From Escherichia coli (GTDB taxonomy: Bacteria; Pseudomonadota; Gammaproteobacteria; Enterobacterales; Enterobacteriaceae): a stretch of 64,000 bases of DNA. Numbering within the stretch: position 1 is the first letter of the stretch; every line of letters begins with the position of its first letter. The DNA lies in NCBI RefSeq assembly GCF_048403405.1, contig NZ_CP183129.1; one strand, given 5' to 3'. Of the stretch, positions 10,685 through 30,390 are shown in pieces. Position numbers and translations under genes: made by a program. The notes beneath the pieces were generated by a model. The model did no database searches, was not told where the DNA came from, and saw only the letters and a list, made by a program, of their open reading frames with translations.

Positions 10685-11368
10685 TTACTCTCTGAAGGTC
10701 TGAATTACGTCACTTATGAAACGAAAGTGAGGGAGGGCTGAAATAAACTCTTCACTGGCAGTCAGAGCATCAAGTTCAGGCTTTCTGCGGAAAGAGGTAT
10801 CCAGAACGGTTACGGCGTTAACGTCTTCCATCCGAAACACCTGTAAATTTCTGGTGCGGGTAGCAACAAGAAACCAGTTTTTGGACTGAAATATCAGACG
10901 GCGGGGAGCTACTGCTTCGTAGCTTTTACCGTTAACCAATAATGTAACGGCGCGGTAGTCGCGGATAGCTTCCGCCAGTTTCAGAAAACAGGCAGTCTGC
11001 GTGACGGGAGAAGATAATGCCCCATGCCCAATAAGACACGGCGATACGCCGGAATTGCTGGCAATCAACCGGATCAACTTGCGGTTCTGAGCCGGAATGA
11101 TTCCTGAAATTCCTGAATTACGTATAAACGCAAATGTATTGGGTAAGTGCTCCCGGCCTGTTTGGCGGATAAGTCGGTAACTTCCGCTGCGATGCTCAAG
11201 ATCCAGATGGATCAGGCGTTGCTGAAAATCCCGCTGTAGGGTGCGTTCTGAGACACCAAATTCATCAGCTAATACTTTAAGCTCCAGAGATTCACCAGCC
11301 AGTAAGCGGCTGATAATGACTGATAGCCTGACAGACAGGCGGTCATGATGATCATGCTGTGTTTTCAT
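10685..11368 (-). CDS. HTH-WYL domain transcriptional regulator (YfjR-like)
   Basis: N-terminal HTH (LKVLADEFGVSERTLQRDF) followed by a WYL-like region; start set at internal Met 11368. Confidence 0.55.
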   Translation of the reverse strand: MKTQHDHHDRLSVRLSVIISRLLAGESLELKVLADEFGVSERTLQRDFQQRLIHLDLEHRSGSYRLIRQTGREHLPNTFAFIRNSGISGIIPAQNRKLIRLIASNSGVSPCLIGHGALSSPVTQTACFLKLAEAIRDYRAVTLLVNGKSYEAVAPRRLIFQSKNWFLVATRTRNLQVFRMEDVNAVTVLDTSFRRKPELDALTASEEFISALPHFRFISDVIQTFRE

Positions 11369-12036
11369 AGTGGGGACAGTCCTGTTCTCCCAAAATATCA
11401 TGGTGTTGATACGGGAGATTATGCCGTACAGGTACGACACGTTATGTCGTACTAAAGGGGAGTTGATTGAAAAAATAGTGGGGTAACTGCAGTTATCTAA
11501 TACTCTGAAATATAAGTTAATTGATTAACTCTAAGGCAAGGTCATCATCACAGAAACGACACAACCTGTCGCGTTGCGCATTGTAAGAAAGAGGGTATCT
11601 GATGCGTACGAAAATGATTTAGTTCTGAAAATAGTTGCAAATGAATCAATACATTCTTATTTTTACAAAAAGTTGGAATGCATAAGCCAATTGACCATTA
11701 GCAATGACAAATCCTTCTAGCGCACTTCGTTGATTAAATATAGATTTAGGTATCCAATCTATTCACACATAACGATTTGCTCCGCTGAACTAACCGAGCA
11801 ACACTGCAAAAAAATATACCACGCCGACAATCAAGAAAAGTACTCACCAGTATAAAGTATCAAGTAAATCAATGCGATGTAGAATAAACACCGGCCCTTA
11901 ATGTGATAGGAATCACATTCCTTCAGCCCTGCATTCCGGCATAATCATATCGGAAGGTTAAACTGCTCACGCCATATCCCTTTTTAGGGGGATATCTATG
12001 AATACCGTTTCAATCCACTAATACATAAGGTAATAA

Positions 12037-12579
12037 ATGGACGCAGAGAAAATTCAGTCAGATATAGATGCTCTTTTGACATACATGAACGATGACATGG
12101 AGAATCTTGGTGAAACAATAAAAACCGTTACATTTGGATTCGAAACAGGCCAGAACGACCGCATTGCTATAGACGAGTTGCTTCACTGGCGGGAAGAGTA
12201 TTTGTTCAAAATCATCAATATTTGCCATTCCCGCTCTCTATTACGTAAGGACTTTGGAGATTTTGAGCATGTATCCTTGACAGAAGAGGGTCAGAGTCGT
12301 GCTATATCAATCAAACACGGAAAAAATCGCTCTTACGAGTTAGGGGCCAGCATGCAAATCGCAACGTTAAATGTTCATGGGCCTGCACAGGTTGGTAACG
12401 GTAATACGCAAAACATCCACAATGTATTTAATCAATTACTTCAGCAGATCGAGAAATCTTCCGCTTCTGATGAAGAAAAACAGGAAGCCAAAAAACGCCT
12501 GGCGAAATTTTTGGAACATCCTTTGGTTGGTTCTATTGTCGGCGGTCTTGCTGGTTCCCTTCCTGGTCTAATGGGATGA
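12037..12579 (+). CDS. hypothetical protein, 180 aa, Gly-rich C-terminus
   Basis: First gene of a compact plus-strand cassette; 4-nt overlap with the next gene; C-terminal glycine-zipper-like tail (GSIVGGLAGSLPGLMG). Confidence 0.45.
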   Translation: MDAEKIQSDIDALLTYMNDDMENLGETIKTVTFGFETGQNDRIAIDELLHWREEYLFKIINICHSRSLLRKDFGDFEHVSLTEEGQSRAISIKHGKNRSYELGASMQIATLNVHGPAQVGNGNTQNIHNVFNQLLQQIEKSSASDEEKQEAKKRLAKFLEHPLVGSIVGGLAGSLPGLMG

Positions 12580-13887: not shown

Positions 13888-14181
13888 ATGGTCCCTGGAT
13901 ATGTATACATATTAATCAACACAAGCATGCCTGGTTTAATTAAAATAGGTCGAACGCTACGCGACTCACGCATGCGTGCGCGTGAACTCTTCTCCACCGG
14001 AGTGCCAACACCGTTTCAAGTTGCTTTTGAGCTGTTCGCTGAACAACATGAAGCTCTCGAGGCTACGGTACATAATGAATTGAATGATTTTCGAGCTAAT
14101 GTGGCACGCGAGTTTTTCCGCTACCCACTCGACAAGGCCGTTGCATTACTAATTCAGCTGCCCCCTCCAAAACGCCACTGA
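13888..14181 (+). CDS. T5orf172/GIY-YIG-like domain protein
   Basis: N-terminus YVYILINTSMPGLIKIGRT … RARELFSTGVPTPF resembles the T5orf172 (GIY-YIG-like) domain; 97 aa. Confidence 0.45.
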   Translation: MVPGYVYILINTSMPGLIKIGRTLRDSRMRARELFSTGVPTPFQVAFELFAEQHEALEATVHNELNDFRANVAREFFRYPLDKAVALLIQLPPPKRH

Positions 14182-14649: not shown

Positions 14650-15770
14650 TAATCAATCTGCCAACGAAGGAGATCGCTACGCGTAAAGCCCGTTTTACTG
14701 AGCATCAGATCATCGCTGTGATTAAGTCAGTTGAAGCCGGACGAACCGTTAAAAATGTCTGCCGGGAGGCCGGTATCTCTGAAGCCACCTACTACAACAG
14801 GAAGTCCAGATACGGCGGCATGGAAACTTCTGATATTAAAATCTTGAGGACGAAAACCGCCGTCTCAAACAGATGTTTGCTGACCTGAGTCTGGAGAGCC
14901 GAGCGCTGAAAGACGTTATCGAAAAAAAGCTTTAAAACCAGCCTTTAAGCGTGAGCTGGTCACTCATCTGATAACGACATTCGGACTCAGTATCAGTCAG
15001 GCCTGCCGGAGTCTGAACCTGAGCATAACGTTTACCGTTACCGCCCGGATACCACGCGTGATGAACCCGTTATTGCCGCCCTGTAGGCTGCGGCTGAGCG
15101 ATACCCACGATACGGCTTTCCGAAGCTTTTCCAGATTCTGCGACGGCAAGGATACTCGTGGAATCACAAAAGGCTCCACCGTATTTACTGTCTGCTGAAG
15201 CTGAATTTTCGCCGTAAGGGCCAGCAACGGCTGCCGGTACGCATCCCTCACCACTGGCTACGCCAGAAGCGCTGAACCAGTGATGGTCTGTCGATTTCAT
15301 GCATGATGCGCTGGCCTGTGGCCGTCATTTTCGCACGTTCAATGTTATTGATGACTTTAATCGTGAGGCGTTATCGATTGAAATCGATCTGAATCTGCCA
15401 TCTCTGCGGGTGGTCCGTGTACTTGACAGGATCGCGGCAAACCGCGCTTATCCGGTCATGCTGCGCATGGATAATGGTCCGGAATTTATCTCTCTGGCGC
15501 TGGCTGAATGGGCAGAGATACACGCAGTAAAACTGGAGTTCATCCAGCCGGGTAAGCCGACGCAGAACGCTTTCATTGAGCGTTTTAACAGGATATACCG
15601 TACAGAAATACTCGATTTTTATCTGTTCAGAACGCTGAATGAAGTACGGGAAATTACGGAGAAATGGTAATCAGAATATAACTGTGAACGCCCGCATGAA
15701 TCACTGAACAATATGACACCGGAGGAATACCGACTTCACAATTATTTGGCCGGGATCTCAAAAAATGCAT
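14650..15770 (+). mobile_element. degraded IS3-family insertion sequence (IS407-group-like), OrfA/OrfB remnants
   Basis: OrfA-like HTH/leucine-zipper frame (…EATYYNRKSRYGG…LEDENRRLKQMFADLSLE) and OrfB-like DDE-core frame (DNGPEFIS…FIQPGKPTQNAFIERFNR…ERPHESL) interrupted by several frameshifts; no intact N-terminus. Confidence 0.7.
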
Positions 15771-16091
15771 GGAACTAAAACGGGTCTATTTACAGGGCCA
15801 TCAGTTAGAAAATGTGGCGTACAACGATAAACAGTTTGGTTGCATAAAAAAACGTAAGAGTTGGTTATCATTCTTTCAACGTAAGGGAATTACAGTAGCG
15901 GTAGGAAAAACTGATAGGTTATTTTACATTGAATTCAAAAAACTGTTTATTTAAGCCGTTAGCGATAAGTTTCATTGTAATTTAGCCGGAAAATGTTCCA
16001 TTGGGAAAACTGAATTGAGACTAATATTATATTAGATGAGAATATTTCTGATGTAAATATACCGAGGAATGGAGGCATCCCTCGGTATATG

Positions 16092-18167
16092 TTAATTCAC
16101 ACCCAGCGCCTTATAAACCGCATCAACCGGGTCTGAGTAAAAACTCACCTGAAACTTGGTAAATAACTCTGCCGGAACCGTTGGAATATCCATAGCCGAG
16201 GACATCGGCAACAGAACCCGTTTTGCGCCGCTGTCGAAGGCGAGCTGTAAACTGGCGGCAAGATCCTGCACCGGGTTAATTACTCCACCAAGGGTCATAC
16301 TGCCCAACACCACCATCTGTTCCTGCACCGGCTTTGCCAGCAATATCGAACATAAAGCGATAAGCGCAGCAAGACTGGTTGCGGTGCTAGGGCCAGTATT
16401 ATGCAGTTCAACGACATGAAGGTGATATTCATGATCAGAGAATTTCGCTGCCGCGCTTACCCGATTCAAATTGCCTTTGAAGTAATCGAAACCGACGCGG
16501 ATAGCTTCTTTCGCGGAGGTATTTGAACCCAGGCCCGATACACTATGCTTACCATTACCGGCAGTCATCTGCGTTTCAAAACGATACAGCCCGGTCATAC
16601 CGCTTTCTGCCTGAGTGACCAAATGCACAACGCCCGGCTTTGGCATTCCGGCAGGAATTAGTTCGCTGCCGCCCTGTTCCGGTACGCTTACAAAAAACTC
16701 TTCCAGCGTTTCGTTATCGATGTAGCTAAAGTTCACATCGAAGAACTCCAGGCCGCCCAGTTTTTTAAGTTGCTCTTTCACTCGACGACGAACTTCCATC
16801 GCATAGGTCAGGCAGACTCGTACATCTTCTTTGCTGTACGCGCCATCGGGATGCATGAGTTTTAACAACCCCGACACTGTACGTCGAACAGCAATCACGT
16901 CACGCTGATTGAGGTTATTTCCCAGCTTGAAGAATTTATCAATTGCATCGGAGAAGCTACGTTTACGCATCTCGCGCATGTATTCAGCGAGATAATCCGT
17001 AATCAAACCATAGCGATTGGTGAAAAATTCCGGGCGCATCTTAGGAATTTCCCAACCAGGAATATAGGCATGGAAGCGGTCAAAAAATGCAGTATCAATC
17101 ATCGCATCCGGGAACGGTGCTAGCAGATGGCTGGTTTTGACCAGTGTATCTACGCTCTGATTGATGTTGCCAACAAACACCATGGAGGCTTTGCCTTCAA
17201 TGGAGTCCCGACCACGAGAGAATGAGCCTGATGCCATGTAATCCTTCATGATCTGCACGCCATCTTTGTCTTTGAAGGTGATCCCTGCCACTTCATCAAA
17301 CGCGACGACGTCCCACATTCCCACAAGACCAATCTGCCGGCTGGCCATGTTGTAAAACAAGTTCGCCACCGTGGTTTGCCCGCCAGATACCAGCAGGGAG
17401 TTAGGAGAGCACTCTTTATAAACATGACTCTTACCTGTACCACGTGGACCAAGCTCGCAGACGTTATAGTTGTTTTCCACAAAGGGAATCATGCGAGTAA
17501 TCAGATGCCACTTGGTACGCTGCTCAATATTTGCAGGTTCCATCCCGACCGAACGTAACAGCACATCAATCCACTGGTCGCGATCAAACTGCTTGCGGGC
17601 TTCAAATACCTCGTCCATATCCATATTTGGCATCTGGATCGGCTTCAGTGTGAACAGCGAGAAAGGAGACGTTTTTTGCCCCTCTTCATAAAAGTAGTTC
17701 ACGGTGATCATGCACCAGATGCCACCAGTCAGCAGTTTCTCGTTGTCTTTCACCATCTGCGACGGCACCAGGGCATCTTTAATGCCAAGGTTAGAGAGCT
17801 GGGCTTCGTAAACGTCTTTCTTCTGATTTAGCTTTACCGTGACCTTATCGATAATCTTGTAAGAACCACGCTCGCGAATTAGTGATTTCACTTTTTCTGC
17901 TTCATCCGGGCGGACGTAGTTATCAGAAAGAATACGCTTAACCGACTGTAGCCCCTGCTCGACAACCTCATCGTCATCGGAGGCACAGTACATACCGAGT
18001 AGATATTCCAGTACGTAAACCGGAACATTCGCCCCTTCTTTAAGTTGCTTAGTCAGATCCTTACGCACCACGCGACCGCGAAAGTGCTGATTCAACAATG
18101 AATCCAGGTCCTGAGCCAACACAGAGGCCGTTTCCATGTTACTGGCTGAGTTATCCTGCTGTTGCAT
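16092..18167 (-). CDS. brxL: BREX BrxL (Lon-like protease-domain ATPase)
   Basis: 691-aa ORF with Walker A (LGPRGTGKSH) and C-terminal Lon-protease-like domain; last gene of the BREX operon. Confidence 0.85.
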   Translation of the reverse strand: MQQQDNSASNMETASVLAQDLDSLLNQHFRGRVVRKDLTKQLKEGANVPVYVLEYLLGMYCASDDDEVVEQGLQSVKRILSDNYVRPDEAEKVKSLIRERGSYKIIDKVTVKLNQKKDVYEAQLSNLGIKDALVPSQMVKDNEKLLTGGIWCMITVNYFYEEGQKTSPFSLFTLKPIQMPNMDMDEVFEARKQFDRDQWIDVLLRSVGMEPANIEQRTKWHLITRMIPFVENNYNVCELGPRGTGKSHVYKECSPNSLLVSGGQTTVANLFYNMASRQIGLVGMWDVVAFDEVAGITFKDKDGVQIMKDYMASGSFSRGRDSIEGKASMVFVGNINQSVDTLVKTSHLLAPFPDAMIDTAFFDRFHAYIPGWEIPKMRPEFFTNRYGLITDYLAEYMREMRKRSFSDAIDKFFKLGNNLNQRDVIAVRRTVSGLLKLMHPDGAYSKEDVRVCLTYAMEVRRRVKEQLKKLGGLEFFDVNFSYIDNETLEEFFVSVPEQGGSELIPAGMPKPGVVHLVTQAESGMTGLYRFETQMTAGNGKHSVSGLGSNTSAKEAIRVGFDYFKGNLNRVSAAAKFSDHEYHLHVVELHNTGPSTATSLAALIALCSILLAKPVQEQMVVLGSMTLGGVINPVQDLAASLQLAFDSGAKRVLLPMSSAMDIPTVPAELFTKFQVSFYSDPVDAVYKALGVN

Positions 18168-18177
18168 AACGCCTCAC

Positions 18178-20775
18178 TTAAAAGAAGTCATCCTGAAATG
18201 CCAGGTCGATCGTGATCGGGTAGCGACCATACTCTGTTGCGCTGTCCGCATTCTCCAGGATAAGAACATACTTGTTTTTACGATTGAATGCCGTCCCCAT
18301 GAGTTTCATGGTTACATCGCGGGTGCGTTTACCCATATCTTCGTTATCACTGTCGAAGCATACTGTTTCCGTGCCGGAGACGACCTGGTTGTTTTCATCG
18401 ACGATAAAGATATTCAGCGTGCGCGGCTCATTTAAATCATTCACTGCCGAAGTCTGAATAAAACCAATTTTATCAATGCTGTTAACCAGTTTGATCACCT
18501 GATCCCGCGCAACGACGGGCACGGGCTGCCGCTGGGGTTGCTTCTCAGCCGCTTTCTTTTCAAGCGCGCGAATCTTCAACACAGGAACACACACTTCCTG
18601 CAGCATGGCTCCGCCATGAACGAAACGAGCACCCCCTACGAAGTGGAAACGCTGTACTCCTTTGGGTAACAGGAATTCACTTTCATCGCTTGCGCCTGCA
18701 GTATCAGCCAGTTTGCCGTGCCAGCAAAATTCACTTTCAGGCAGTTGATGGCCTACAATAAAACGCTTATTCGCTTCAATCGTGTCTTTGGCTTTACTTT
18801 CCAGCTTCGTTTTATCCTGCTCCACCAGCGCTTGTTGTTGGAACAGGAAGCCGTGATCGGCGGTAACAAAAATTCGGCTGGCATTAAATCGGCTACGCAG
18901 GCGTGAAACCAGATCTTTTAGCTCAGTGATTGCACTTCGGCAGGCCTCAAACGTTTTATCTTCCGTTGCAGCCTTATCACCCATGGCATCTATAGTGTCG
19001 TGCCAGATATAAACTACGGAAGCGTTGCGGATTTGCTCGTTCACTTCCTGGTTATTGGCGTTCTGCAAGTCCTTTGCTTTCAGCGCTACACCATTCACCT
19101 TCGCAAGAATAGCGGCTCTTTTTTCAAACCCGGAAGTGGACATCCCATCGGCGTATACTACACCAGAATTATCAGGAAGATAGCTCAACGACTCATGAGG
19201 CAACAGTGCGGCCATGCCCAGTTGGGTATAGCTTGGGAGCACTCCGGTCTGGGAGCGCAGCTCTGCACTGAAGTGCTTCTCATAGTTGATATGCCTGCCC
19301 AGCTCTTCCGCCACTTCGTAGCGCAATGCATCCGAGATCACGACAAAAACACGTTTGACCTGCGAGGTGTCAAACTGACGTTTAACATTCTCTTTATAGA
19401 AATTGCGCTGCAGGGGTATGCCGCTAAACTGCCAGGCCTGCATACGGTTTTCCGCTTCCAGCAGTTTGTTCCAGCCGCGACTTAGTTCAGTCAGATACCA
19501 ATTGCTGTATAACTCTTCGATGAATTTATCCAGTTCATGCAGGATCATCGCCCCTTTGCTGTGCACTGGTGCAGCATATTCATTGAACAAACGATAGGTC
19601 TGATCGAAGCGATAAATTTCGTCACAATAGGCCTTCCAGAACGCACCTGTATCGGGGAAATTAAACCCGTCGGTGTAACGGTTACGCAAATTCAGCAAGC
19701 GTTCTGCCTGACGAATAGCATTCCAGATAGAAAGATACTCTGGGCGGGTTTGGCTCCAGTATTTCGCACTGCGCTCTGAAACCAACGCTTTAAACGCATC
19801 TCTGTCCAGAGTGGTGCTCTCTTCCTGCAACTGTGTCACCAGACCACGGATAATAAGTTGCTCAATAGCCTCGAAGGTTTCACATTTTGCCAGTGTATAT
19901 GGTGAGCTGTAGTTGTAGTGTTCTTTTGGCTGGAGCGTCTGCTGCAAATCCTCTGCACAGTAATCGTATTCTACTTTATAGCGACGATCGTTGCGCCACG
20001 CCCCCATAAAGGCCAGTGACGAGGCCCGACCAGCCGCGGTAGCCAGCACATTTTTACTCAACCAGTCACGATGTGCTTCATCACCCTGCGCCCAGAGATC
20101 GGTACAGAACAGTTTCAGAAGCAGATTTTCCATTGAAGGAGATTCAGACTGGTATCCCAACTCAAGGCGAAGAATTTCCCAAAGTACCTCATCCAGGCCA
20201 AGCTTCGTCAGTACGGCGAAAGTGTTCTCGAGTGCGCTATCATCTTGCTGCCGTGCTGCGACAAACTGCTGAACCAAAGCAAATAGTATTTCTTTGGTTT
20301 CGAAGGTACTGGCCCCGACCACCACCGCCAGCATTTTCTTATCGAGAGAGTTTTCCGTTTCGCGCTCGGTGACCCATCCCTTCAGGATCTGAGTTCGCTT
20401 AACGGTAAAGAAGGCTTTGCGAAGCTGAATATGTTCGCGTAAACCGAGTTGCGGGATACCCAGAGAATTCAGGGTGATCGCCGCATAATCAGCGTGGAAT
20501 TCGGTACTATAGAGGCGGATATCCAGCAACCAGTCCTGCTCGCGAGCAGGAACCTCACAGGTGAAATAGAGTAAAAATTTCTGCTCAGGCTCGTCGATTT
20601 CGAGTCGTTTTTTTGTTGCGAGCACAGAAACGCCACGCATATCCAGCAGCGTGACATTGTCGAGATCCAGCTCATTAATTGAATCAGTGAAGCGTTGTTC
20701 CGGGTCGTGCCAGAAGACGATACGGTTGTCGGTAAACTTCTGACGAAGCCCTGATTCCAGTTCTTTAAATTGCAT
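18178..20775 (-). CDS. pglZ: BREX PglZ (alkaline-phosphatase-superfamily protein)
   Basis: 865-aa ORF with PglZ-type motifs (…VTADHGF…); positioned between the methyltransferase and brxL. Confidence 0.85.
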   Translation of the reverse strand: MQFKELESGLRQKFTDNRIVFWHDPEQRFTDSINELDLDNVTLLDMRGVSVLATKKRLEIDEPEQKFLLYFTCEVPAREQDWLLDIRLYSTEFHADYAAITLNSLGIPQLGLREHIQLRKAFFTVKRTQILKGWVTERETENSLDKKMLAVVVGASTFETKEILFALVQQFVAARQQDDSALENTFAVLTKLGLDEVLWEILRLELGYQSESPSMENLLLKLFCTDLWAQGDEAHRDWLSKNVLATAAGRASSLAFMGAWRNDRRYKVEYDYCAEDLQQTLQPKEHYNYSSPYTLAKCETFEAIEQLIIRGLVTQLQEESTTLDRDAFKALVSERSAKYWSQTRPEYLSIWNAIRQAERLLNLRNRYTDGFNFPDTGAFWKAYCDEIYRFDQTYRLFNEYAAPVHSKGAMILHELDKFIEELYSNWYLTELSRGWNKLLEAENRMQAWQFSGIPLQRNFYKENVKRQFDTSQVKRVFVVISDALRYEVAEELGRHINYEKHFSAELRSQTGVLPSYTQLGMAALLPHESLSYLPDNSGVVYADGMSTSGFEKRAAILAKVNGVALKAKDLQNANNQEVNEQIRNASVVYIWHDTIDAMGDKAATEDKTFEACRSAITELKDLVSRLRSRFNASRIFVTADHGFLFQQQALVEQDKTKLESKAKDTIEANKRFIVGHQLPESEFCWHGKLADTAGASDESEFLLPKGVQRFHFVGGARFVHGGAMLQEVCVPVLKIRALEKKAAEKQPQRQPVPVVARDQVIKLVNSIDKIGFIQTSAVNDLNEPRTLNIFIVDENNQVVSGTETVCFDSDNEDMGKRTRDVTMKLMGTAFNRKNKYVLILENADSATEYGRYPITIDLAFQDDFF

Positions 20776-21344
20776 TATTGATTCTCAAACCATTCGACCA
20801 GTTCATGAGCGCTAGGGCAAGCAGGGTGTCTGGCAGAACTCTGAATATCAAAACCGTGATGCGTTACCATTCTCCTGGCAAATGCGGTTTTAGAACTTCC
20901 CGGTCCCTGTTTTCCTAGCTCGCGTGAAATTACTTTTAAACGATCCCATGGCATTTCAGTTGTAGCTTCAGGTAACTCTTCATTAAATGTGTCTACTTTA
21001 AGCCATTTTTTCATTGCCTCTGAATCGGCAAGAAACCAAGCCTCAACTGCTTTGACTGCGATAAACGAGATGTCGACATCTTGATGGGCAATTCGGGCCC
21101 GTACATCAGCAACAGATGCCGCATCTTCCAGGTCGGTCAGAATACAGATCCGTTCAGCACCTACATTTCTGAGCCTAGCAACGAAATTATCAACATACTT
21201 CGGTAACAGGTTACCACCACCTTTGGCATCAATAACGGGAGTTACCAATTCAAAATTATTCGTGCGCAGAAATGCAATGAACGCTGGTGAATTCACGATG
21301 ATTGACTCAGTATCACCTTCAACGATAAAACCTATTTTTACCAT
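20775..21344 (-). CDS. small TOPRIM-like protein (DUF4276-like) embedded in the BREX operon
   Basis: 189 aa; N-terminal IGFIVEGDTE and downstream ICILTDLED resemble TOPRIM Glu and DxD motifs; start overlaps the ATPase stop by 7 nt and its stop overlaps the pglZ start (TAATG). Confidence 0.6.
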   Translation of the reverse strand: MVKIGFIVEGDTESIIVNSPAFIAFLRTNNFELVTPVIDAKGGGNLLPKYVDNFVARLRNVGAERICILTDLEDAASVADVRARIAHQDVDISFIAVKAVEAWFLADSEAMKKWLKVDTFNEELPEATTEMPWDRLKVISRELGKQGPGSSKTAFARRMVTHHGFDIQSSARHPACPSAHELVEWFENQ

Positions 21345-22459
21345 GGCAAACCGCCATCAAACATATTCATCAGCCACGCGGTATCCAGTGGGATTTCCTT
21401 TTTATCAACCCCCGCATCTGAAGCATGCATCAGCTGAGTTTTCCCCTCTTTTTTACTAACAAACCACAGTTCGTCTGGTTCCAGATTGCGAACAATAGAT
21501 TCACTATGGGTAGTAATAACAATTGGATGATTCAAAGAGGCATTTTCACGCATCAATTGCACAAGTTCCCCAATGGCTTTTGGGTGAATACCGCGTTCAG
21601 GCTCTTCAATAATGGTCATCCCCGTTTGCTGTGCTCGACTCAAGATGGCCGTCATAATACAAAGCGTGAAGATGGTGCCGTCAGAGATAAGATGGGCAGG
21701 AAAGCGGGCACGAGTTCCCTGTTCTTTAAAGGTCAATACCGTTGAGCCATCCAATTTTTGTTTCTCGGTCGATACATTTTCCATCCCCGGAACGATGAGT
21801 TCCATCCACTCCAGTATTTGCTCTTTAAATTCGCTATTCGATTCGAGAGCAGCAAGCACAGAAGCAATGTTTCGACCATGACTGTCCAGAAATGTCGAGT
21901 CAGTTTTGGCGCTATCGGGCTCTTTAGCACGTAACGGATCGATGCGAAAAACAACAATATTGGTCAAAAAAGCGTACAGTTCACTTTTCCCCAGTAGCAT
22001 TAGTGCCGTCATATCTGACGAGTAGTTAGGGATTAAAGTCGCAGGGATTTCATCACTATCGCTCAGGCGAATCATAAGAGTATCAGGGTGCTTACGATCA
22101 ATATAAATATCTCCATCAATGACCAACTTTTCAGTGATTGTTGGTTTTTTATCCATGTTTTTGATCGTCAAGTCATAGGTAAACTGTTTTCCTCCCAGCT
22201 CAATTTGAAGGTGCAGTGAAGCCGTAGTCCGATTTTCCTTACGCAGCTTGTAGCAATGAATCTGCTGAAAACCGCCAAAATCACGGATTGCTTGTGTCGC
22301 CCCGGTTTTCACTACGGCACCAAAAAAAGCCAATGCATCGGTAATGTTACTTTTGCCCGCACCATTGGCTCCAGCAAAGGTGATAAATGGTGGGCTTTCC
22401 ACAAGGGAAAGCTCCGCGATGCTCTTGTAGCCTTTAATAATCAGGGGATGTTGATCCAT
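21338..22459 (-). CDS. ABC-type ATPase (AAA_15/AAA_21-like) embedded in the BREX operon
   Basis: 373 aa; Walker A (GANGAGKSN) near the N-terminus and C-terminal ABC-like H-loop region (IVITTHSESIV); start overlaps the pglX stop (TAATG). Confidence 0.7.
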   Translation of the reverse strand: MDQHPLIIKGYKSIAELSLVESPPFITFAGANGAGKSNITDALAFFGAVVKTGATQAIRDFGGFQQIHCYKLRKENRTTASLHLQIELGGKQFTYDLTIKNMDKKPTITEKLVIDGDIYIDRKHPDTLMIRLSDSDEIPATLIPNYSSDMTALMLLGKSELYAFLTNIVVFRIDPLRAKEPDSAKTDSTFLDSHGRNIASVLAALESNSEFKEQILEWMELIVPGMENVSTEKQKLDGSTVLTFKEQGTRARFPAHLISDGTIFTLCIMTAILSRAQQTGMTIIEEPERGIHPKAIGELVQLMRENASLNHPIVITTHSESIVRNLEPDELWFVSKKEGKTQLMHASDAGVDKKEIPLDTAWLMNMFDGGLPW

Positions 22460-25400
22460 TATGCCTCCTGTGGCGCACTGCCGGTGATCGCCTTGACATC
22501 CGCCAGCAGATCGCCAAATTTGCCGTAGTTAACCTTAACGCCGTCATCCAGATCAATAGTGATACGTCTATCAGCATAGTGACGCAAGCGATCGTCAAAA
22601 TTGCGCAGCTCGTTGAATTTTTTAGTCAACCCATCCAGCTCTTTTTTCAGGCGTGTGGTGGCAGCGCCCGATTCTGCATTTTTAAGCTGATCGTTAACAA
22701 GATCGATATTTCCCTGGTAGCGTGCCAGCAGCGGAACTACATATTCGGTACGCATACGTGACAATGTGCCTTCATTATAACGGTGCAGATACACCAGGCA
22801 CTCAAACGCCTTCTCTTTACCTGAGCTGAATAGCCAGTAAATTGGGCGCTTCTTGTACATCTTCATATGATCTTTCCAGAACTGGGTGGAAAGATAGCGA
22901 CGGATGGTATCCAGCGAAGACTCGCCTTTTTTCGGCTTGATTGCGTACAAGCAGAGGCTTTCGGCGATGAAATCGAGGTTTTCTTGTAAATGTTCTTCGC
23001 CCCAGACTGTGCGAACGAACTCTTTAACGCGGGAGGTAACATCGTCATCGAACCAGTCAGAATCCATTAATGGCAGGATACCATCTTCATCGGCAGGGAA
23101 GGTTTGGTAGGCGCCTTCATCTACTAATTCAGAAAAGCCTTTGTTACCTTCGTGGGCGTAGACCAAGCCTTCGCGATCAAGGGAATAGCGGCCCATCATG
23201 CAGCCAATAGCCAGGCTAAGTGAGTTTATAACCTGAATCGCCTTAAATTGGTTATATTCATCTTTTGAAATTGAGCTTAATGACTGGAAAACATTATTTT
23301 CCAATGTTATTTCTGCCAAGGCAAGATTGTTTTCGTTTAAAATATTGCATTTTTCATAAAATATTTTGTTATTATCACATTCTAGCTCATGTGTTTTGAT
23401 TAACTTTTGATAAAAAACTTCAGTCTGGTTTTTTAATATGTTTACTAGGCTGCCGTTTTGAAACGCATCCTGATTGAAGGAAAACTGATAACTATTTTCC
23501 TGCTGACTCCAATTTTCTTTAGCCAGAGAAATTAGTTCAGCAGTGTTCAAGGATAGGCTCTCAATCATTTTCTCATCAAAAAATGCTGGTAATTTACTTA
23601 TATCCCCCGGTTGATAATTTAATGTTGGAGAGATAGCCTTTATTAAAGAGATAATAATATCACTATTAATAAATGCTAACACAGGCAGGTAAAGGTCTTC
23701 ATTATTAACAAATAACGAAGACCCTGCATTGTCAAATAATGAGGACTCTGAGACTCTTGCAGATGTCTTGCTTGAGGAAAGAGCGTTCCATGTAATCCCT
23801 TTTTTAAATATAAAATCTAAATTATAGTTATGCGAACGTACCTTTCCTGATTTTTCATCGGTAAAATTTTGAATTTCCCGACCATCGTCGAACCAATTTA
23901 CGACATAATCAAGATTACCGTACCACTTTCTATATTCACCACCTTTCTGATAAGGGAACCATTTCAGACCGGATTTTTTAGCTTGAATACGATCAGTAAA
24001 ATCAAAACCGATATTCGCGAAATTAACTTCATGCCAAAAACGTAAAAAACGCTCATTATCCGCTGTTGCCATTCCAAGGCGTGTTGAGGCAATTTGAGAT
24101 ATTTTTTTATTATCAAATAAATTAACCTCACTTTCGCTGAGCCAATACGCAATCGGTGCACCGGGGATTTTTTGGAAGTCATCGGCAGCGGCAGTCTTTA
24201 AACGATCGTTTTTAACCGGAAATTCTTTTGGATATCCTTCATCATTGATATCGTCATTCTCAGTATAAGAGAATGCCCCTTGATAAGAAGGAATGTGAAC
24301 ATTTCTAAACACTGTTGCATTGGTACCAAAGGCAATTTTCATAACGCCATTGCCCATATGTACCATCGTCTCAATAGTGTATTTATCCAATATATTCGCA
24401 CGCATATTTTCATAGCTAGACAAAAACATCCATGATTGCATAGTCACCATTGAGTTGTACGCAGCATCTTTGAGCCAGGAAAAACCCCGCTCAATAAACA
24501 TCGCAAACAAATCTGACTTACTGTCCGGGAATTGTTTCTTAGCGAACTCTTTCAGTTCACCGTTCATCCCTTTCCCACCCATATACGGCGGGTTCGCCAC
24601 AACCGCATCGTAACGCTGCGCCAAAATCCACGCCTGCTGAATATACGGAATCAGCTCTGCTGCCGCTTCTTTCTGCGGGATATCACCCTCGACAGCCAGA
24701 CGATATAGTCCACCCAGGAATGTCTTCAGCGCCGTTTCATCTTCCTGCGGCACCTGAATCAGTGATCCCAGCGTTTTTGCACTAGTGAACAAAGCCAGAG
24801 TACGCATCAGTAGCTTATATTCCGCGCTGTCGGTATTGGCCAGTGACGTCCCTTGGGTAAACATATCTCCCATGCTGCCGCGTTGCGCCTGCTGATGAAA
24901 GTTCAGCTTGGTCCACAGTTCAGCGATATCCAGTTTACTTTCCTGCAGCGAAACGATATTCAGGCGAACGCCACGGCCCAGAATACGACGATCGTCCTGA
25001 CGGGCAAGCATCAGCATCGCAAAACCGGAAAGCTGCGCCGCACGGTCATCAATATCTAGGCCGAAAATATTGTTTTCCAGAATCAGCTGCGGAATGTCAC
25101 GGGTACGGTAGCCACGCTCTTCGTAAATGGCCTTCAGCACGTTATAGGCTTCGGTCAGGATATGCCCGGAGCCGCAGGCCGGGTCCAGCACCTTAATACT
25201 TTCTGGTTCAATGCTTGATGGGGTAATAGCCGCCAGCTGTGCCTGCACTTCCGGCGTTTGTTCCGCTGGCTCAATGTAGTACGGCATTTTGCCTTTCAGG
25301 CTGGAGTCCGGATAGGTTTGCAGCCACTGGCGGCCCACCGAGTTCTGCACCAGATACTGCACAATCCAGTTCGGAGTAAACAGCTGGGTAGCGGCAGGAA

Positions 25401-26112
25401 TATCTTCGCTCTTCACCACCTTGCCGATCACATCATCTTTTTTCTCGGAAATATAAAACTGATACAACCAGCCGATCACTTCGACCTGTTTCCAGTCTTC
25501 TTCAGGAATCGTGTCCACCAGCCCGCGCAGAATAGAGTCGGTGCGAGTCAGGTTATCCGGCAATACCAGTTCGATATCATCATTGACTGCTTCGAACAGG
25601 AAAGGCATAGCGCCGTGCAGCGCATGGCACTGTGCAAGCAATAGTTCACGGTACAGCTCTTCGTCACGATCGCCCGCCAGCTTCATCTCCACCAGGCGTG
25701 ATTTGTCCAGCCCAAGTGCATCAGCCACTTCCGGCACATGATCCAGAACCTCAAAACTCCCTTCCAGGGTCGGGTGAGACAGCATACGGAAACCGTGATC
25801 AAGATAGCCATGCAGCTCCATATAGCGAATAGCGCAAAAGCGGTTAAACCAGGTGTAAGCGATGTGCTCCACCAGCACGTCATAGCCCTGCTTTTCTGCA
25901 CGCTTGACCAGACGTTCACGGCGTGAAGCCAGTGATTTATCCAGCGAGAACTGACCATATCGCACACTGTCGCCAAGATCGGTTGCTTGCGCTATTTGCA
26001 GGTTGCCTTTTTTATCGGCGTCAATACCCAGCGTGGTCAGTTTTTGCATGACCGCATCGCGGAACTGTTTACGTGCCACCGGGGCGTATTTTTTGATATT
26101 TGACGTATTCAT
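22459..26112 (-). CDS. pglX: BREX PglX (N6-adenine DNA methyltransferase / specificity protein)
   Basis: 1217-aa ORF with methyltransferase motif I (LDPACGSGHIL) and motif IV (VVANPPYMGG); AT-rich central to C-terminal block. Confidence 0.85.
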   Translation of the reverse strand: MNTSNIKKYAPVARKQFRDAVMQKLTTLGIDADKKGNLQIAQATDLGDSVRYGQFSLDKSLASRRERLVKRAEKQGYDVLVEHIAYTWFNRFCAIRYMELHGYLDHGFRMLSHPTLEGSFEVLDHVPEVADALGLDKSRLVEMKLAGDRDEELYRELLLAQCHALHGAMPFLFEAVNDDIELVLPDNLTRTDSILRGLVDTIPEEDWKQVEVIGWLYQFYISEKKDDVIGKVVKSEDIPAATQLFTPNWIVQYLVQNSVGRQWLQTYPDSSLKGKMPYYIEPAEQTPEVQAQLAAITPSSIEPESIKVLDPACGSGHILTEAYNVLKAIYEERGYRTRDIPQLILENNIFGLDIDDRAAQLSGFAMLMLARQDDRRILGRGVRLNIVSLQESKLDIAELWTKLNFHQQAQRGSMGDMFTQGTSLANTDSAEYKLLMRTLALFTSAKTLGSLIQVPQEDETALKTFLGGLYRLAVEGDIPQKEAAAELIPYIQQAWILAQRYDAVVANPPYMGGKGMNGELKEFAKKQFPDSKSDLFAMFIERGFSWLKDAAYNSMVTMQSWMFLSSYENMRANILDKYTIETMVHMGNGVMKIAFGTNATVFRNVHIPSYQGAFSYTENDDINDEGYPKEFPVKNDRLKTAAADDFQKIPGAPIAYWLSESEVNLFDNKKISQIASTRLGMATADNERFLRFWHEVNFANIGFDFTDRIQAKKSGLKWFPYQKGGEYRKWYGNLDYVVNWFDDGREIQNFTDEKSGKVRSHNYNLDFIFKKGITWNALSSSKTSARVSESSLFDNAGSSLFVNNEDLYLPVLAFINSDIIISLIKAISPTLNYQPGDISKLPAFFDEKMIESLSLNTAELISLAKENWSQQENSYQFSFNQDAFQNGSLVNILKNQTEVFYQKLIKTHELECDNNKIFYEKCNILNENNLALAEITLENNVFQSLSSISKDEYNQFKAIQVINSLSLAIGCMMGRYSLDREGLVYAHEGNKGFSELVDEGAYQTFPADEDGILPLMDSDWFDDDVTSRVKEFVRTVWGEEHLQENLDFIAESLCLYAIKPKKGESSLDTIRRYLSTQFWKDHMKMYKKRPIYWLFSSGKEKAFECLVYLHRYNEGTLSRMRTEYVVPLLARYQGNIDLVNDQLKNAESGAATTRLKKELDGLTKKFNELRNFDDRLRHYADRRITIDLDDGVKVNYGKFGDLLADVKAITGSAPQEA

Positions 26113-26160
26113 ATGAAGTCCTGAAAAGGGCAGACAATGTCTGCCCTGAAAATGGGGAAA

Positions 26161-29100
26161 TTACTGAAGCTGTACGCGTTCACCTGCGTTAATGGCATCC
26201 ATTAGCGTTTTACGGAGTTGTTCCAGCGCTTTGTCTACCTGTTCGGCGTTATCCAGCGTTGTCACACCCGCCGCTCGTTCCATCGTTTTACGCGTGTTTA
26301 CGTAGATGGTTTTTTTCAGCTTGGGTTCAGGCTTAACTACGGGGTCGATAATCCCAGGCTGAGGAGCAGGTTTTGGATCAGACACTTTCTTACGCTGATC
26401 CTCAACCCAGCCGTTCAGCCGTTCATTCGCTTTAAATTGTAGCGCTCGAACCTCAGCCTGTTCTTCCATAATCTGTGGGATCAGGCCGTTCTGCTCCACT
26501 TTCTTACGCGATTGTTGCATCGGGTGTAAAAGCGAGTGTTGCAAGTCAGCAGGGACGTGCATCTCCTGCATGCTTTGCTTAAGTTCATTGATATGACCAT
26601 CGATCTGTAGCAGCGCATGGCTTCGATATTCTTCGACCAGACGCTGGTTGATGGTTTCAACGGTTTCAATCAGCGGGATAATCCGATGCAGTTCTCCATA
26701 AGGTCGTGCCTTGCTGTAGATCCCTTCCAGTTCCTGTAACGCCTTTTGGGCCGTTTCGTCTTTATCCAGCGCGTTACGGTTAGCTTTAAAACTGCCATTC
26801 AACGCCATACTCAAGCGCTGCCAGGTAGCGTATTGGTTTTTGTAGAAGCTAACCAAATCGTCCCAGTCTTCCGAGAAATCTTTAAGATCGTCAGCCGCTG
26901 CGGTGATTTTTTCAATGACCGCGTATTCCTCTTTCTCGTTAAGGATCCCGTTCAGCAATACCAGACCTTCTTCTATCTCTTTACGGCCAGGGTTTTGTCC
27001 ACTCTCTGCACGAGTTTTAAAAACAGTCAACTCGCTATTCCAGCGGCCAAAGAGTTCGCGAATATGAGAGACCAACGACTGTTCTTCACGCTCGTTAAAC
27101 GGCTCTCCAGCAATCTCTGCCATCAGCTGCGCAGCTTTAGTCAACTGTGCTTCATCATGGCGACGAACTTTATGCAGACGCAAATCGCTGTAACGACGTG
27201 AATTATTAAACGCGTCCCACGCCTGCTTCAGTGCGATTTCACTGCCTTGCAGAGTGAAGCTGTATTTACCGCTGCGTGCCAGCCGAGCAACCAGCAATTT
27301 GACTTCATCTTCCGGCCAGCCAAACGGGCGACGGCCAAAAGTGGTGAGAATATCCCGCAGGTAAACTGGCTTATGAGTCTCAATACTCATGCTGATCCAG
27401 TTATCCACTTCACGCATCGCCTCTGGGTTGGATTCTTCCATACCCCCGAGATCGAGCTGGGTATCATTTTCTACTGTCAACAGCGCGTGAGTTTCACGAT
27501 TTACGTCTCCGGTACTAAGACGCAGCAATTTTAGTTTAGAGAAACTGTTCTCGATAACGTAACCGCAGGCTGCATCCACGATAGCTAACGGCGAAGAGGA
27601 TTTCTTATCCAGCCGTTCGCCCAGCGCCCAGACATCAGCTTGAGCCAGCAAGCCTTCAATCTGCGCCTTAAGCGTTTTTTCACGCATACTATTTTCACGG
27701 CCTTTTTCCGCCAACAGCGTTGCCTGTTCCGGGCGCTGGCCGCTTTGCTTGCTGAGGAAAGCTTTGGTCTGAGCGTACATGGTCAGGTCTTGCCAGGTAC
27801 GAGCCTCATCAGGCAGGCAAATTAAGATGCAGTCTTTACTGTCCGTCATCAGCAGACTATTAGAATGCGCACCCTTATAGCTCTCGTAGTTCGAGTCCAG
27901 TGGCGTGAGCACTTTAACCACCAGATCGTTAAGATTCGCACCATCCAGCGGATGTCCGTTACAAAAACGACTGATATCAAAATCCTGCTTATTGGCCGGA
28001 TAGCGATATCTTTTGTTTTTCAGGATCTCTTCGAAAATGATGGTTGAGAGTTGCTTATTGATGGTGGTGAATTCCACGTCAATATTGCGGATTTCGTTTT
28101 CAATCTCTTTTTCTTCGTTAGTGAGAAAAACAAATTTGTCATCAATACGCGAGATCAGCATCTCAGCCTGCAGACGATTAAGGCTGGCTTCAATCTGTCG
28201 ACGGAGTTCCACTTTATCAGTATCAATACGCTCAATAGAGAGCGTGACGAGATTGTCGAGAGTACTTTTCAGCACATCGACGTAGCGGATCAGGAACAGT
28301 GTCTTTAGTAGTTTGCCGTCAAATTCAGTCAGTGACGGAGACTGGCAGGCCTGAATAATAGTGCGGCTAACTGCAGGTTCCAGGAAGCTTTCAATCGCTG
28401 AATAGAAGCGCCAGAACGGGACCAGACTATCCAGACCATCTGCGGAGATTTGCACAGCAGCCGACTGGAAGGCATCTAGCAAAGAGCGCTCCCCCATTGC
28501 CAGCTGCTTACCTGCGGCCCCTTTAGTACGGATTGATTCAAAGACTTTTTGCAGGATCTGGTAATGCCACGGTACAAACGGATAGTTATCCACGAACTCG
28601 CGGCTGTTTGTATAGGCTCGCAGAGTAGCGGTCGTTGTCGTGTCAAACGCCAACTGGTTACGCAGAATATCGCCTTTTTCCTGCCAGATAGCTTCCAGCG
28701 CCGGTATTGCCGCATCGGTTTTTACCAGCAGACGTTTCTGGATAACTTCTGAAGTATTCGAGCTGGAGAGTTGTAAGCGCGTTGAGAAACGTCCCTGAAT
28801 CTTGGAGAAGTCCTGACCATCACGACTGCTCATACCGCCAATAGCAGCATTAATGTCAGCCTGGGAGGTAACTATCACCCATGCCCGCCCACCACAAATA
28901 ACGCCCAAGTTTTCGGTGATAGTTTGCAGCTTGAGCATCATCTGAGCATCTTTACCAATGAACTGACCAACTTCATCGACCATAAACAGGATATTGCGAT
29001 TACCATGGCTGTCGAGCCACTCTTTCACCCACGTACAGAAATTTTTGATATCCAATGGGAAGTTCTTATCAAGTTGCTCGATCCATTGACGAGAAGACTC

Positions 29101-29775
29101 TTCACTCTGGCCTGTAGCAATACTCAGTGCCTGAGCCATCTGATCGTTTATCATCAGATAAACATCACGTTCGTCTTCCCAGCGAGACCCTGTAATGTCC
29201 GCGAAGGCTGCCCTAAAGGTATCAAATTGTCCACGCTTATCGAGCTCACGTTCCAGATGTGCAATATGTGGGAAGTCGCCACAATAACCAGCTAGTTCGT
29301 TAAAGACTTTCAGAAAGACTTTGAGTATGGCATCAACGCCATCTTCAACATTCGCACGTGAGTCAATATTGAATAATATGACATCGGTCGGATGTTGTAC
29401 CGATTTCCGAATATCAGCCAATAGCAGTGCATCATCAATTTTCTCTTCAAAGAAGGAAAGTGCATTACGAGTGACACCATTATGGCTTACTTCGCGGTTC
29501 GCCAGTAGATAGGATAAGATCTTAATGAAGTGTGATTTACCCGAACCAAAGAAGCCTGAAACCCAGACGCCTATTTTGTCAGCAAGCTGTAATCTGCCAG
29601 GGCCAGTAGCAGGGGCATATACTTCAAAGAACTGACGCAGGTGACCATCCAGCTCTCTGGTAATGACATACTCATCCAGTTCTATCCAGGCGCTTTCGTC
29701 GTCGGTCTGCTCGGCTTTAACCACGCCGTTAATATTACGTTTTAGCTGTTTCTCAAAAATTTGTTCAATATTCAT
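26161..29775 (-). CDS. brxC: BREX BrxC/PglY (large P-loop ATPase)
   Basis: 1204-aa ORF with N-terminal Walker A (GFFGSGKSHFIKIL); position between brxB and pglX. Confidence 0.85.
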   Translation of the reverse strand: MNIEQIFEKQLKRNINGVVKAEQTDDESAWIELDEYVITRELDGHLRQFFEVYAPATGPGRLQLADKIGVWVSGFFGSGKSHFIKILSYLLANREVSHNGVTRNALSFFEEKIDDALLLADIRKSVQHPTDVILFNIDSRANVEDGVDAILKVFLKVFNELAGYCGDFPHIAHLERELDKRGQFDTFRAAFADITGSRWEDERDVYLMINDQMAQALSIATGQSEESSRQWIEQLDKNFPLDIKNFCTWVKEWLDSHGNRNILFMVDEVGQFIGKDAQMMLKLQTITENLGVICGGRAWVIVTSQADINAAIGGMSSRDGQDFSKIQGRFSTRLQLSSSNTSEVIQKRLLVKTDAAIPALEAIWQEKGDILRNQLAFDTTTTATLRAYTNSREFVDNYPFVPWHYQILQKVFESIRTKGAAGKQLAMGERSLLDAFQSAAVQISADGLDSLVPFWRFYSAIESFLEPAVSRTIIQACQSPSLTEFDGKLLKTLFLIRYVDVLKSTLDNLVTLSIERIDTDKVELRRQIEASLNRLQAEMLISRIDDKFVFLTNEEKEIENEIRNIDVEFTTINKQLSTIIFEEILKNKRYRYPANKQDFDISRFCNGHPLDGANLNDLVVKVLTPLDSNYESYKGAHSNSLLMTDSKDCILICLPDEARTWQDLTMYAQTKAFLSKQSGQRPEQATLLAEKGRENSMREKTLKAQIEGLLAQADVWALGERLDKKSSSPLAIVDAACGYVIENSFSKLKLLRLSTGDVNRETHALLTVENDTQLDLGGMEESNPEAMREVDNWISMSIETHKPVYLRDILTTFGRRPFGWPEDEVKLLVARLARSGKYSFTLQGSEIALKQAWDAFNNSRRYSDLRLHKVRRHDEAQLTKAAQLMAEIAGEPFNEREEQSLVSHIRELFGRWNSELTVFKTRAESGQNPGRKEIEEGLVLLNGILNEKEEYAVIEKITAAADDLKDFSEDWDDLVSFYKNQYATWQRLSMALNGSFKANRNALDKDETAQKALQELEGIYSKARPYGELHRIIPLIETVETINQRLVEEYRSHALLQIDGHINELKQSMQEMHVPADLQHSLLHPMQQSRKKVEQNGLIPQIMEEQAEVRALQFKANERLNGWVEDQRKKVSDPKPAPQPGIIDPVVKPEPKLKKTIYVNTRKTMERAAGVTTLDNAEQVDKALEQLRKTLMDAINAGERVQLQ

Positions 29776-29787
29776 TGCTGTCGTCTT

Positions 29788-30390
29788 TTAACGAGGAGTC
29801 AAAGTCGCCGCCGGTCTGGTTTCTGGTACCAGTCTGAAGGCGCGGTAATAGTTACGAGAATTAATGCCAGCGAGTGGAGAAAGATCGTATCCGCTATAGG
29901 TGCCTGGATAGAACATCAGCAATGGTGTAAATCCCATCACGTCCTGAAGTGCGCTCATTAGCTCATGACCACGAACCAACGGCCAGGCGTTACCAAGTCC
30001 CGTCAGAATGACAAATTGCTGCGCAGGAAGATCGACCGTGCGTGCAATATATTCCGCGATTTTTTTCTGGCTTAGCGGGGCAGCCAGATGCTTTTTCAGT
30101 GTCTCAAGGCCAAGCTCAGGCTCTCGTTGGCAGATACGTTCAAAGAGCTTACGTTCTTCCAACATATCGATGATAATCTGGAAGATATTTAGCGTTTTAT
30201 AGGTGTACTTTTTATCCAGTTTTTTGAATAAAAAGTGCAAGTACTCGCGGACCTGAAGCTCTTGTTTTGCCGGATAATCAAAGATCCAGAAGCCAATCTC
30301 ATTGCCGGAACCTTGGTTTTTCAAAAAACGGTCGTCGCCGATACGTTCTTCTAACTGTTTTAATCGGTATTCAAGGATCGGGTCATTCAT
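29788..30390 (-). CDS. brxB: BREX BrxB (DUF1788-like)
   Basis: 200-aa ORF between brxA and brxC; 4-nt overlap with brxA. Confidence 0.7.
   Translation of the reverse strand: MNDPILEYRLKQLEERIGDDRFLKNQGSGNEIGFWIFDYPAKQELQVREYLHFLFKKLDKKYTYKTLNIFQIIIDMLEERKLFERICQREPELGLETLKKHLAAPLSQKKIAEYIARTVDLPAQQFVILTGLGNAWPLVRGHELMSALQDVMGFTPLLMFYPGTYSGYDLSPLAGINSRNYYRAFRLVPETRPAATLTPR

Follow-up and report, generated by a model that had tools for sequence, protein, structure and literature searches.

Two genes lie between pglX and pglZ of a type 1 bacteriophage exclusion (BREX) operon in the stretch of DNA analyzed here, a 64,000-nucleotide (nt) piece of Escherichia coli contig NZ_CP183129.1 that we refer to as the window. 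Full-length profile matches of both products identify the pair as a member of HEC-01, a family catalogued as a defense candidate, in which an ATP-binding cassette (ABC) ATPase is joined by a TOPRIM protein. When this assignment is placed next to the occupants of the same junction in other genomes, and next to the positions of the family outside BREX, additional insight is gained into what the pair may do.

A gene pair between pglX and pglZ

The host operon is complete, with brxA, brxB, brxC, pglX, pglZ, and brxL ordered on one strand and read from right to left in window coordinates (Table 1), and the RefSeq annotation of an identical locus is BREX-1. The island is placed at leuX, beside a degraded integrase, and identical copies of the locus occur in sequenced human isolates, for example, MS 69-1 and TUM14771. 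Both open reading frames (ORFs) named in the original prediction are present on the minus strand, and the motifs quoted for them can be read in their products, GANGAGKSN (residues 30 to 38) and TTHS (316 to 319) in the ATPase and IGFIVEGDTE (4 to 13) and ILTDLED (68 to 74) in the nuclease candidate. They are not chance ORFs, because their products match Pfam families, 488 homologues of the nuclease candidate were retrieved, and the ratios of nonsynonymous to synonymous substitution rates (dN/dS) are 0.07 to 0.09. Measured against the BREX-embedded copies of Yersinia ruckeri, dN/dS is 0.067 for the ATPase gene and 0.087 for the nuclease gene (0.035 for pglZ), values that point to purifying selection on both genes of the pair.

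All three junctions overlap, as had been described, reading TAATG, ATGGTAA, and TAATG on the minus strand. A canonical AGGAGG Shine-Dalgarno sequence lies within the last codons of pglX, the end of which reads ...CCACAGGAGGCATAATG on that strand. The pair had been called translationally fused into the operon; the genes overlap in the manner of translationally coupled genes but are not fused. It is probably coupled in translation to pglX upstream and to pglZ downstream, and its cotranscription with BREX is plausible. In a promoter and terminator consensus scan over 15500 to 33000, the counts were at or below the expectation from shuffled sequence, which leaves the scan uninformative about internal promoters.

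Table 1. Features of the locus in window coordinates. The last four genes lie downstream of brxL and were mapped from the identical TUM14771 annotation.
Feature	Position	Strand	Remarks
ATPase gene (HEC-01A type)	21338-22459	minus	373 aa
Nuclease-candidate gene (HEC-01B type, DUF4276)	20775-21344	minus	189 aa
pglX stop/ATPase start TAATG	22457-22461	minus	1-nt overlap, read from sequence
AGGAGG Shine-Dalgarno sequence	22464-22469	minus	4 bases upstream of ATPase start
ATPase stop/nuclease start ATGGTAA	21338-21344	minus	7-nt overlap
Coupling element	21338-21355	minus	GGCGG (plus-strand positions 21351-21355), Shine-Dalgarno-like; then CC[A TG]G, TAA
Nuclease stop/pglZ start TAATG	20773-20777	minus	1-nt overlap
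pglX, BREX-1 methyltransferase/specificity subunit	22459-26112	minus	upstream neighbor of pair; full-length PADLOC match
pglZ	18178-20775	minus	downstream neighbor of pair; full-length PADLOC match
brxA	30390-31007	minus	full-length PADLOC match
brxB	29788-30390	minus	full-length PADLOC match
brxC	26161-29775	minus	full-length PADLOC match
brxL	16092-18167	minus	full-length PADLOC match
leuX, tRNA-Leu(CAA)	33043-33127	minus	island boundary
Degraded P4-type integrase	31578-32471	minus	island boundary
WYL-domain protein gene	10685-11368		possibly BrxR-like regulator
GTPase-family gene	9633-10645		frameshifted
GIY-YIG nuclease gene	~13888-14181		small
IS3 transposase gene	~14673-15778		degraded

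Family assignment: HEC-01 rather than PARIS

The ATPase matches Pfam AAA_21 (4e-24), as well as SMC_N and AAA_15, and the PADLOC model HEC-01A (PDLC04176) with an E value of 1.2e-181, residues 1 to 373 aligning with positions 1 to 371 of a 371-position profile. Its score against HEC-01A is 602 bits, compared with 90 bits against the PADLOC AriA model (E = 6e-26); weaker PADLOC matches are to AbiLi (2.8e-29), NsnB (4.8e-26), and mad3 (1.8e-19). A Walker A motif (G30 to S37, with K36), the signature S259-D-G-T262, a Walker B-like motif (I284-E-E-P-E288), and an H-loop (T317-H318) lie on an ABC head fold, as in the Rad50/SMC/OLD clade, and an alignment of 46 homologues shows Walker A (G30...K36-S37), S259-D-G-T262, E285-E-P-E288, and T317-H318 to be invariant. 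The protein has a beta-rich insert at about residues 80 to 145, and its model lacks long coiled-coil-type helical arms; its class is that of a coiled-coil-less Rad50/SMC/OLD-like ATPase. A phmmer search of the PDB with the ATPase returned generic ABC motifs only and did not retrieve AriA.

The smaller protein matches Pfam DUF4276 (1.5e-5) and, from end to end, the PADLOC model HEC-01B (PDLC04185; E = 5.2e-100; residues 1 to 189 on positions 1 to 188 of 188). No NCBIfam model matched it, and a PDB sequence search gave no meaningful relative. In its predicted model (mean predicted local distance difference test score, 96.8), a four-stranded parallel sheet is interleaved with helices, E9 stands at the end of strand 1, and D71-L-E73 stands at the end of strand 3, which is the nuclease-type, OLD-like TOPRIM arrangement of a Glu after strand 1 and a DxD-type motif after strand 3. 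Among 55 homologues, E13, D71, E101, and D107 are invariant, and the conservation of E9 and E73 is 90% or higher. DUF4276 has been placed in the Toprim superfamily (PMC12065111), and the same paper is the only source for its homology to Mad4. We regard the protein as a candidate minimal TOPRIM nuclease, and the expectation of an ABC ATPase with a minimal TOPRIM or DUF4276 partner is borne out. Two further invariant features of the nuclease family are a GGGNLLP loop (residues 42 to 48), outside the Toprim acidic residues, and H173-x-x-C176-x-S178 in the C-terminal helical part.

HEC-01 is Hma-embedded candidate 01 of PADLOC-DB v2, which pairs an ABC ATPase with a TOPRIM protein (Payne et al. 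2024; 10.1101/2024.01.29.577857). The window pair shares with it both protein families at full length, adjacent genes on one strand in the order ATPase then TOPRIM-like protein, and embedding in a methylation-based defense system; it differs in that the copies by which the family was defined lie in Hma, whereas the window copy lies at the pglX/pglZ junction of type 1 BREX. An exact match to an already characterized, named system had been regarded as fatal to the original prediction. The full-length match is to HEC-01, which has a name but is a candidate system.

A second family had to be weighed, the phage anti-restriction-induced system (PARIS), which is defined by AriA together with the DUF4435 protein AriB (PMC11464382). 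The window pair resembles PARIS in its ABC ATPase with a separate TOPRIM effector, in its occupation of the same pglX/pglZ slot of enterobacterial BREX-1 islands, and, by analogy, in a presumed logic of sensor and latent nuclease. The defining DUF4435 AriB is nevertheless missing, and PARIS identity was rejected on that ground. The 189-aa protein has no Pfam match to DUF4435 and no match to the PADLOC AriB model even at E <= 10, and hhalign gave a probability of 1.5% between the nuclease family profile and an AriB-like DUF4435 protein. The window protein, a DUF4276 protein of 189 aa, thus has no detectable sequence homology with AriB, a DUF4435 protein of about 277 to 300 aa. The 373-aa window ATPase, with its model free of long helical arms, has only Walker A and the signature/Walker B/H-loop stretches in common with a PARIS-type ATPase; AriA is a protein of 53 to 55 kDa whose assembly relies on coiled-coil inserts (PMC11464382; not compared here). 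The HEC-01 family is also rare on phages, unlike PARIS, which is often virus encoded (PMC11464382). A true PARIS mechanism, in which Ocr or another anti-restriction protein would free AriB to cleave tRNA-Lys, is in our judgment very improbable in the light of the AriB and DUF4435 searches and the two ATPase scores. The resemblance to split OLD and PARIS systems that had been predicted, with a nuclease other than AriB, is upheld by the DUF4276 match and the lack of a DUF4435 match.

Other systems invite comparison. The OLD-family nucleases and GajA of Gabija combine ABC ATPase and TOPRIM in a single chain, whereas the window pair consists of two polypeptides linked by translational coupling only, and it has no helicase partner corresponding to GajB. 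Mad3 of the methylation-associated defense system (MADS) and NsnB of Menshen are ABC ATPases, as the mad3 and NsnB matches reflect; MADS membership was rejected on an NCBIfam MAD3 score of 85 bits against a cutoff of 420 bits, and no other MADS or Menshen genes were found at the locus. AbiL has a similar two-gene abortive-infection layout of an ATPase and a small partner, in keeping with the AbiLi match, but the 189-aa protein has no match to AbiLii, itself a RloB/Toprim-like protein. PrrC, in the EcoprrI type I restriction-modification (R-M) locus, offers a parallel for an ABC-type module inside a modification-based defense operon and, by analogy, for nuclease latency; it differs as a single protein with another nuclease domain, silenced by the host R-M complex. 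It is the classical precedent of a backup fired by an anti-restriction protein (10.1101/2024.01.29.577857).

Coupling, exchange, and spread of the cassette

We surveyed the cassette in one genome per species (74 loci), and a conserved element couples its two genes. In a nucleotide alignment of the junction from 73 loci, the ATPase always ends in Gly-Gly-x-Pro-Trp-stop, and the arrangement GGnGG-N7-[A/G/T]TGGTRA is found in 72 of them. The Gly-Gly codons form a Shine-Dalgarno-like GGAGG/GGnGG for the nuclease gene, the start codon of which is made up of the wobble base of the Pro codon and the TG of the Trp codon TGG. Only one of the 73 loci has C as that wobble base; the other 72 have A, G, or T, and a start codon is therefore almost always present. 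The 7-nt overlap occurs in at least 61 of the 74 loci, including copies outside BREX; as a family trait it therefore provides no evidence for integration into BREX, and of the overlaps that had been taken as a sign of such integration, only the two outer TAATG junctions can serve as one. Dual coding can also explain why the C-terminal tail of the ATPase (residues 357 to 373) is invariant, yet disordered in the predicted model; instead of this, or in addition to it, the tail may have a docking role.

In a second E. coli allele, carried by MS20657 and the N-strains, pglZ is 99.4% identical to that of the window and the nuclease gene about 99%, but the ATPase (L084 12162-13283 compared with window 21338-22459) shares only 83% protein identity. 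Nucleotide identity of the ATPase gene is 99 to 100% at both ends and 64 to 76% mid-gene, with the amino acid changes concentrated in residues 76 to 232, the insert region. Window positions 23208 to 24408, inside pglX, cannot be aligned with the MS20657 operon, which is otherwise 95 to 96% identical. This part of pglX is likely to be its specificity or target-recognition region, and the MS20657 operon presumably has a different BREX motif specificity. The mosaic pattern in the two genes fits a recombinational exchange of specificity modules.

In MS20657, a +1 A insertion also puts the nuclease gene out of frame from about codon 57 (L084 ~12020-12162). A lineage of six E. coli genomes with a frameshifted nuclease had been considered and was rejected after a targeted search found the insertion in 1 of 26 genomes, MS20657 only; there is therefore no lineage-wide loss, and the frameshift could reflect either true inactivation of the gene or a mistake in the assembly. 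It is the observation that would favor regarding the pair as an inactive relic that the BREX island has brought with it. With all catalytic motifs intact, dN/dS at 0.07 to 0.09, and the frameshift confined to that one genome, the likelihood of a relic appears close to negligible.

The slot itself has other occupants. Two accessory genes at this position in Salmonella had been named in the original prediction, correctly (PMC9009780, PMC11341690), but they are of another family; that pair, STM4493/4494, encodes an ATPase and a DUF4435 protein (Zaworski et al., PMC9009780) and has been named as the PARIS genes ariA and ariB (Went et al., PMC11341690). The Salmonella and window pairs are therefore analogous occupants of one slot and not homologues. 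The Salmonella island also lies at leuX (PMC9009780), the same attachment site as that of the window island. Within E. coli, strain R18 has a PARIS-type pair between pglX and pglZ (L083 11732-13521), consisting of a 363-aa ATPase with best PADLOC matches to AriAB/AriA and a 233-aa AriB-like protein, a C-terminally altered form of the 277-aa protein that NCBI names "DUF4435 domain-containing protein [Enterobacteriaceae]"; a 134-nt spacer precedes its pglZ. When the window and R18 operons are aligned, homology ends 6 nt before the pglX stop and returns 11 nt before the pglZ start, so that the exchange of the two unrelated cassettes coincides exactly with the gene boundaries. The pglX/pglZ junction of BREX is thus a host to interchangeable ATPase-TOPRIM cassettes. 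A survey of OLD-type ABC/TOPRIM modules embedded in BREX already exists, under the label "PARIS-like" (PMC12839542).

A BREX-1 pglZ is present in 346 of 5426 complete E. coli genomes. By a 60 to 80% identity band, and not by inspection of single loci, 318 of the 346 have a divergent, HS-like pglZ, and the one HS-type locus that was inspected has only a 176-nt spacer between pglX and pglZ, in line with the expectation that the slot is empty in canonical type 1 BREX. The window-type operon with the pair was found in 26 genomes (20 chromosomes and 6 plasmids). One of the remaining two genomes is R18. In the other, 2273-PO3 (E. coli O15:H12), only a BREX remnant is left; its pglZ is a pseudogene, frameshifted and truncated at the N terminus, that directly adjoins an IS5 element, and the stretch inspected has no annotated pglX.

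From this exchange, it could be speculated that the junction is a recombination-exchangeable guard slot, whose embedded pair would keep watch over the intact state of the BREX machinery and fire its nuclease only when BREX is disabled. Alternative ABC-ATPase/TOPRIM cassettes would be swapped at the gene boundaries and chained translationally to pglX and pglZ, an inhibitor binding to PglX, for example, would be sensed, and the mosaic insert of the ATPase would set which anti-BREX factor is recognized. Such an arrangement would be a guard relationship of the PrrC/EcoprrI kind, for BREX. We hold it to be a tentative possibility.

Across species, the ATPase gene lies directly upstream of the DUF4276 gene in about 72 of the 74 loci. 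Twelve loci are within BREX-1, always between pglX and pglZ, in Yersinia, Xenorhabdus, Oceanospirillales, Ectothiorhodospira, Agitococcus, Thiothrix, and several Betaproteobacteria; pglX overlaps the ATPase gene by 1 or 4 nt in 7 of these 12, and the nuclease gene overlaps pglZ by 1, 4, or 11 nt in 6. In the remaining 62, BREX is absent from the surrounding ~10 kb on either side. On a neighbor-joining tree (no support values), BREX-embedded and free ATPases are interleaved, which suggests repeated capture or loss. The family is of modest size, with 369 clusters at 50% identity (E <= 1e-3). As to phage carriage, IMG/VR contributed one distant match and INPHARED two tiny fragments, so that, apart from one P2-like Vibrio prophage, it is not notably phage-borne.

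Some BREX loci with the pair hold extra cargo in the brxC-pglX interval or in the pglX-pglZ interval, namely, PDC-M25 (another ABC ATPase pair), the PD-DExK protein PDC-S02, and a gene resembling GmrSD/BrxU (loci with extra cargo: L016, L017, L019, L031, L037, L048, L039, and L006). In L016, a second PglX-like fragment lies just upstream of the ATPase gene.

It is conceivable that the pair is an integral BREX accessory that acts with PglX and PglZ in restriction, for instance by supplying a nuclease, or that tunes BREX. Translational coupling on both sides and a position at one and the same junction in all 12 BREX-embedded loci, in Gamma- and Betaproteobacteria, would agree with such a role, as would the report that deletion of the analogous Salmonella pair shifted the efficiency of plating of some phages about 10-fold and that of BB1 strongly (PMC11341690). 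We nonetheless consider it quite unlikely, as 62 of 74 loci lack BREX, the divergent type, of which the inspected example has an empty slot, makes up 318 of the 346 BREX loci in E. coli, embedded and free copies interleave on the tree, the slot takes unrelated cargo (PARIS-type pairs, PDC-M25, and PDC-S02), and the Salmonella pair is dispensable for both methylation and defense (PMC11341690).

The copies outside BREX occupy varied positions. One in Pseudomonas adjoins Wadjet JetABCD, and in Vibrio fluvialis (L004/L005 7223-14547) the cassette lies in a P2-like prophage, directly after a CI-type repressor gene. The Vibrio fluvialis copy adjoins an integrase and the DNA methylase, MvaI/BcnI endonuclease, and Vsr of a type II R-M system, and its position is reminiscent of the P2 old/tin defense hotspot. 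Another copy directly follows polA in Andreprevotia. In Runella, Spirosoma, and related Bacteroidetes, the cassette is co-directional between the halves of a split transketolase (285 aa N-terminal and 317 aa C-terminal), and other copies stand directly after trpE or ileS or before ftcD (loci in housekeeping operons: L050, L064, L065, L072, L076, L077, L047, and L056, with the pair at ~10001 in those with full flanks). Such a setting is unusual for a presumed defense cassette. In Moraxella, a stand-alone copy (L008 9582-11348) has, 3 nt downstream of it, an ORF of 588 aa that matches nothing in Pfam or NCBIfam and could be a third component in that lineage.

These positions bear on another explanation, according to which the cassette is a selfish addiction module, with the nuclease as toxin and the ATPase as its restrainer, that has no dedicated antiviral role and lodges in expressed or selected operons. 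Co-directional copies in housekeeping operons (within the split transketolase and after polA, trpE, and ileS) are what it would lead one to expect, stoichiometric coupling built into the cassette is typical of toxin/antitoxin pairs, the HEC-01 that was tested had no defense phenotype (10.1101/2024.01.29.577857), and the Pfam description of the AAA_21 domain is "putative AbiEii toxin, Type IV TA system" (TA, toxin-antitoxin). Enrichment at defense loci is, however, far above chance (BREX in 12 of 74 loci, Wadjet, and the P2-like prophage hotspot), and allelic mosaicism of the ATPase is typical of sensors in an arms race. An addiction module is on balance unlikely, although addiction and abortive infection are not mutually exclusive.

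Proposed role and meaning

The reading that we favor, with a probability of roughly 0.55 and largely by analogy, is that the pair forms an autonomous, mobile HEC-01 cassette of a sensor ATPase and a latent TOPRIM nuclease, which would serve as an abortive-infection layer co-expressed with BREX. The cassette would have been inserted precisely at the pglX/pglZ junction of the type 1 BREX on the leuX island, and its built-in overlap would yield ATPase and nuclease in a fixed ratio. The ATPase may keep the nuclease latent and serve as the sensor, with the variable, beta-rich insert at about residues 76 to 232 as its specificity region. Once a factor from the phage is detected (it may be an anti-BREX or anti-restriction protein), binding or hydrolysis of ATP would lead the ATPase to release or activate the TOPRIM nuclease, which might then cut nucleic acid, either tRNA or DNA, and so abort the infection. 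The pair would in this way form a second layer behind BREX and not a BREX subunit. The roles of sensor and effector, the trigger, the target, and the abortive outcome are inferred from PARIS (PMC11464382), OLD, Gabija, and PrrC, and a response of embedded systems to anti-BREX factors is a general proposal (10.1101/2024.01.29.577857; PMC12839542).

Several published observations weigh against this proposal. The HEC-01 representative tested in E. coli gave no protection against any phage tried (10.1101/2024.01.29.577857), and HEC-01 stays a candidate because of that result; there is no phenotype for any HEC-01 or for the Salmonella analogue. Deletion of ariA and ariB in Salmonella lowered neither defense nor methylation, and Ocr/Gp5 failed to trigger that pair (PMC11341690). 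The Salmonella PARIS-type pair was silent in all of the assays applied to it, and no BREX-embedded pair has so far had a demonstrated effect.

Part of this picture was already known, namely, HEC-01 as a candidate family and the embedding of OLD-type ABC/TOPRIM modules in BREX. New here are the recognition of HEC-01 and PARIS as separate occupants of one junction, exchanged exactly at gene boundaries, as well as the family-wide dual-coding coupling element, the copies in housekeeping operons, and the mosaic ATPase allele. Since HEC-01 and PARIS are distinct occupants of the junction, the label "PARIS-like" should not be assumed for BREX-embedded pairs. The survey also shows that the family is independent of BREX in most lineages and at the same time has a strong, nonrandom association with one BREX junction.

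Embedded ATPase-nuclease pairs have been proposed as a backup that is fired when phages neutralize BREX (10.1101/2024.01.29.577857; PMC12839542). The E. coli locus provides a native-host test case for this proposal in which another cassette family fills the slot, and the conserved coupling element and the mosaic, presumably sensing, insert of the ATPase offer handles for mutagenesis and for trigger screens.

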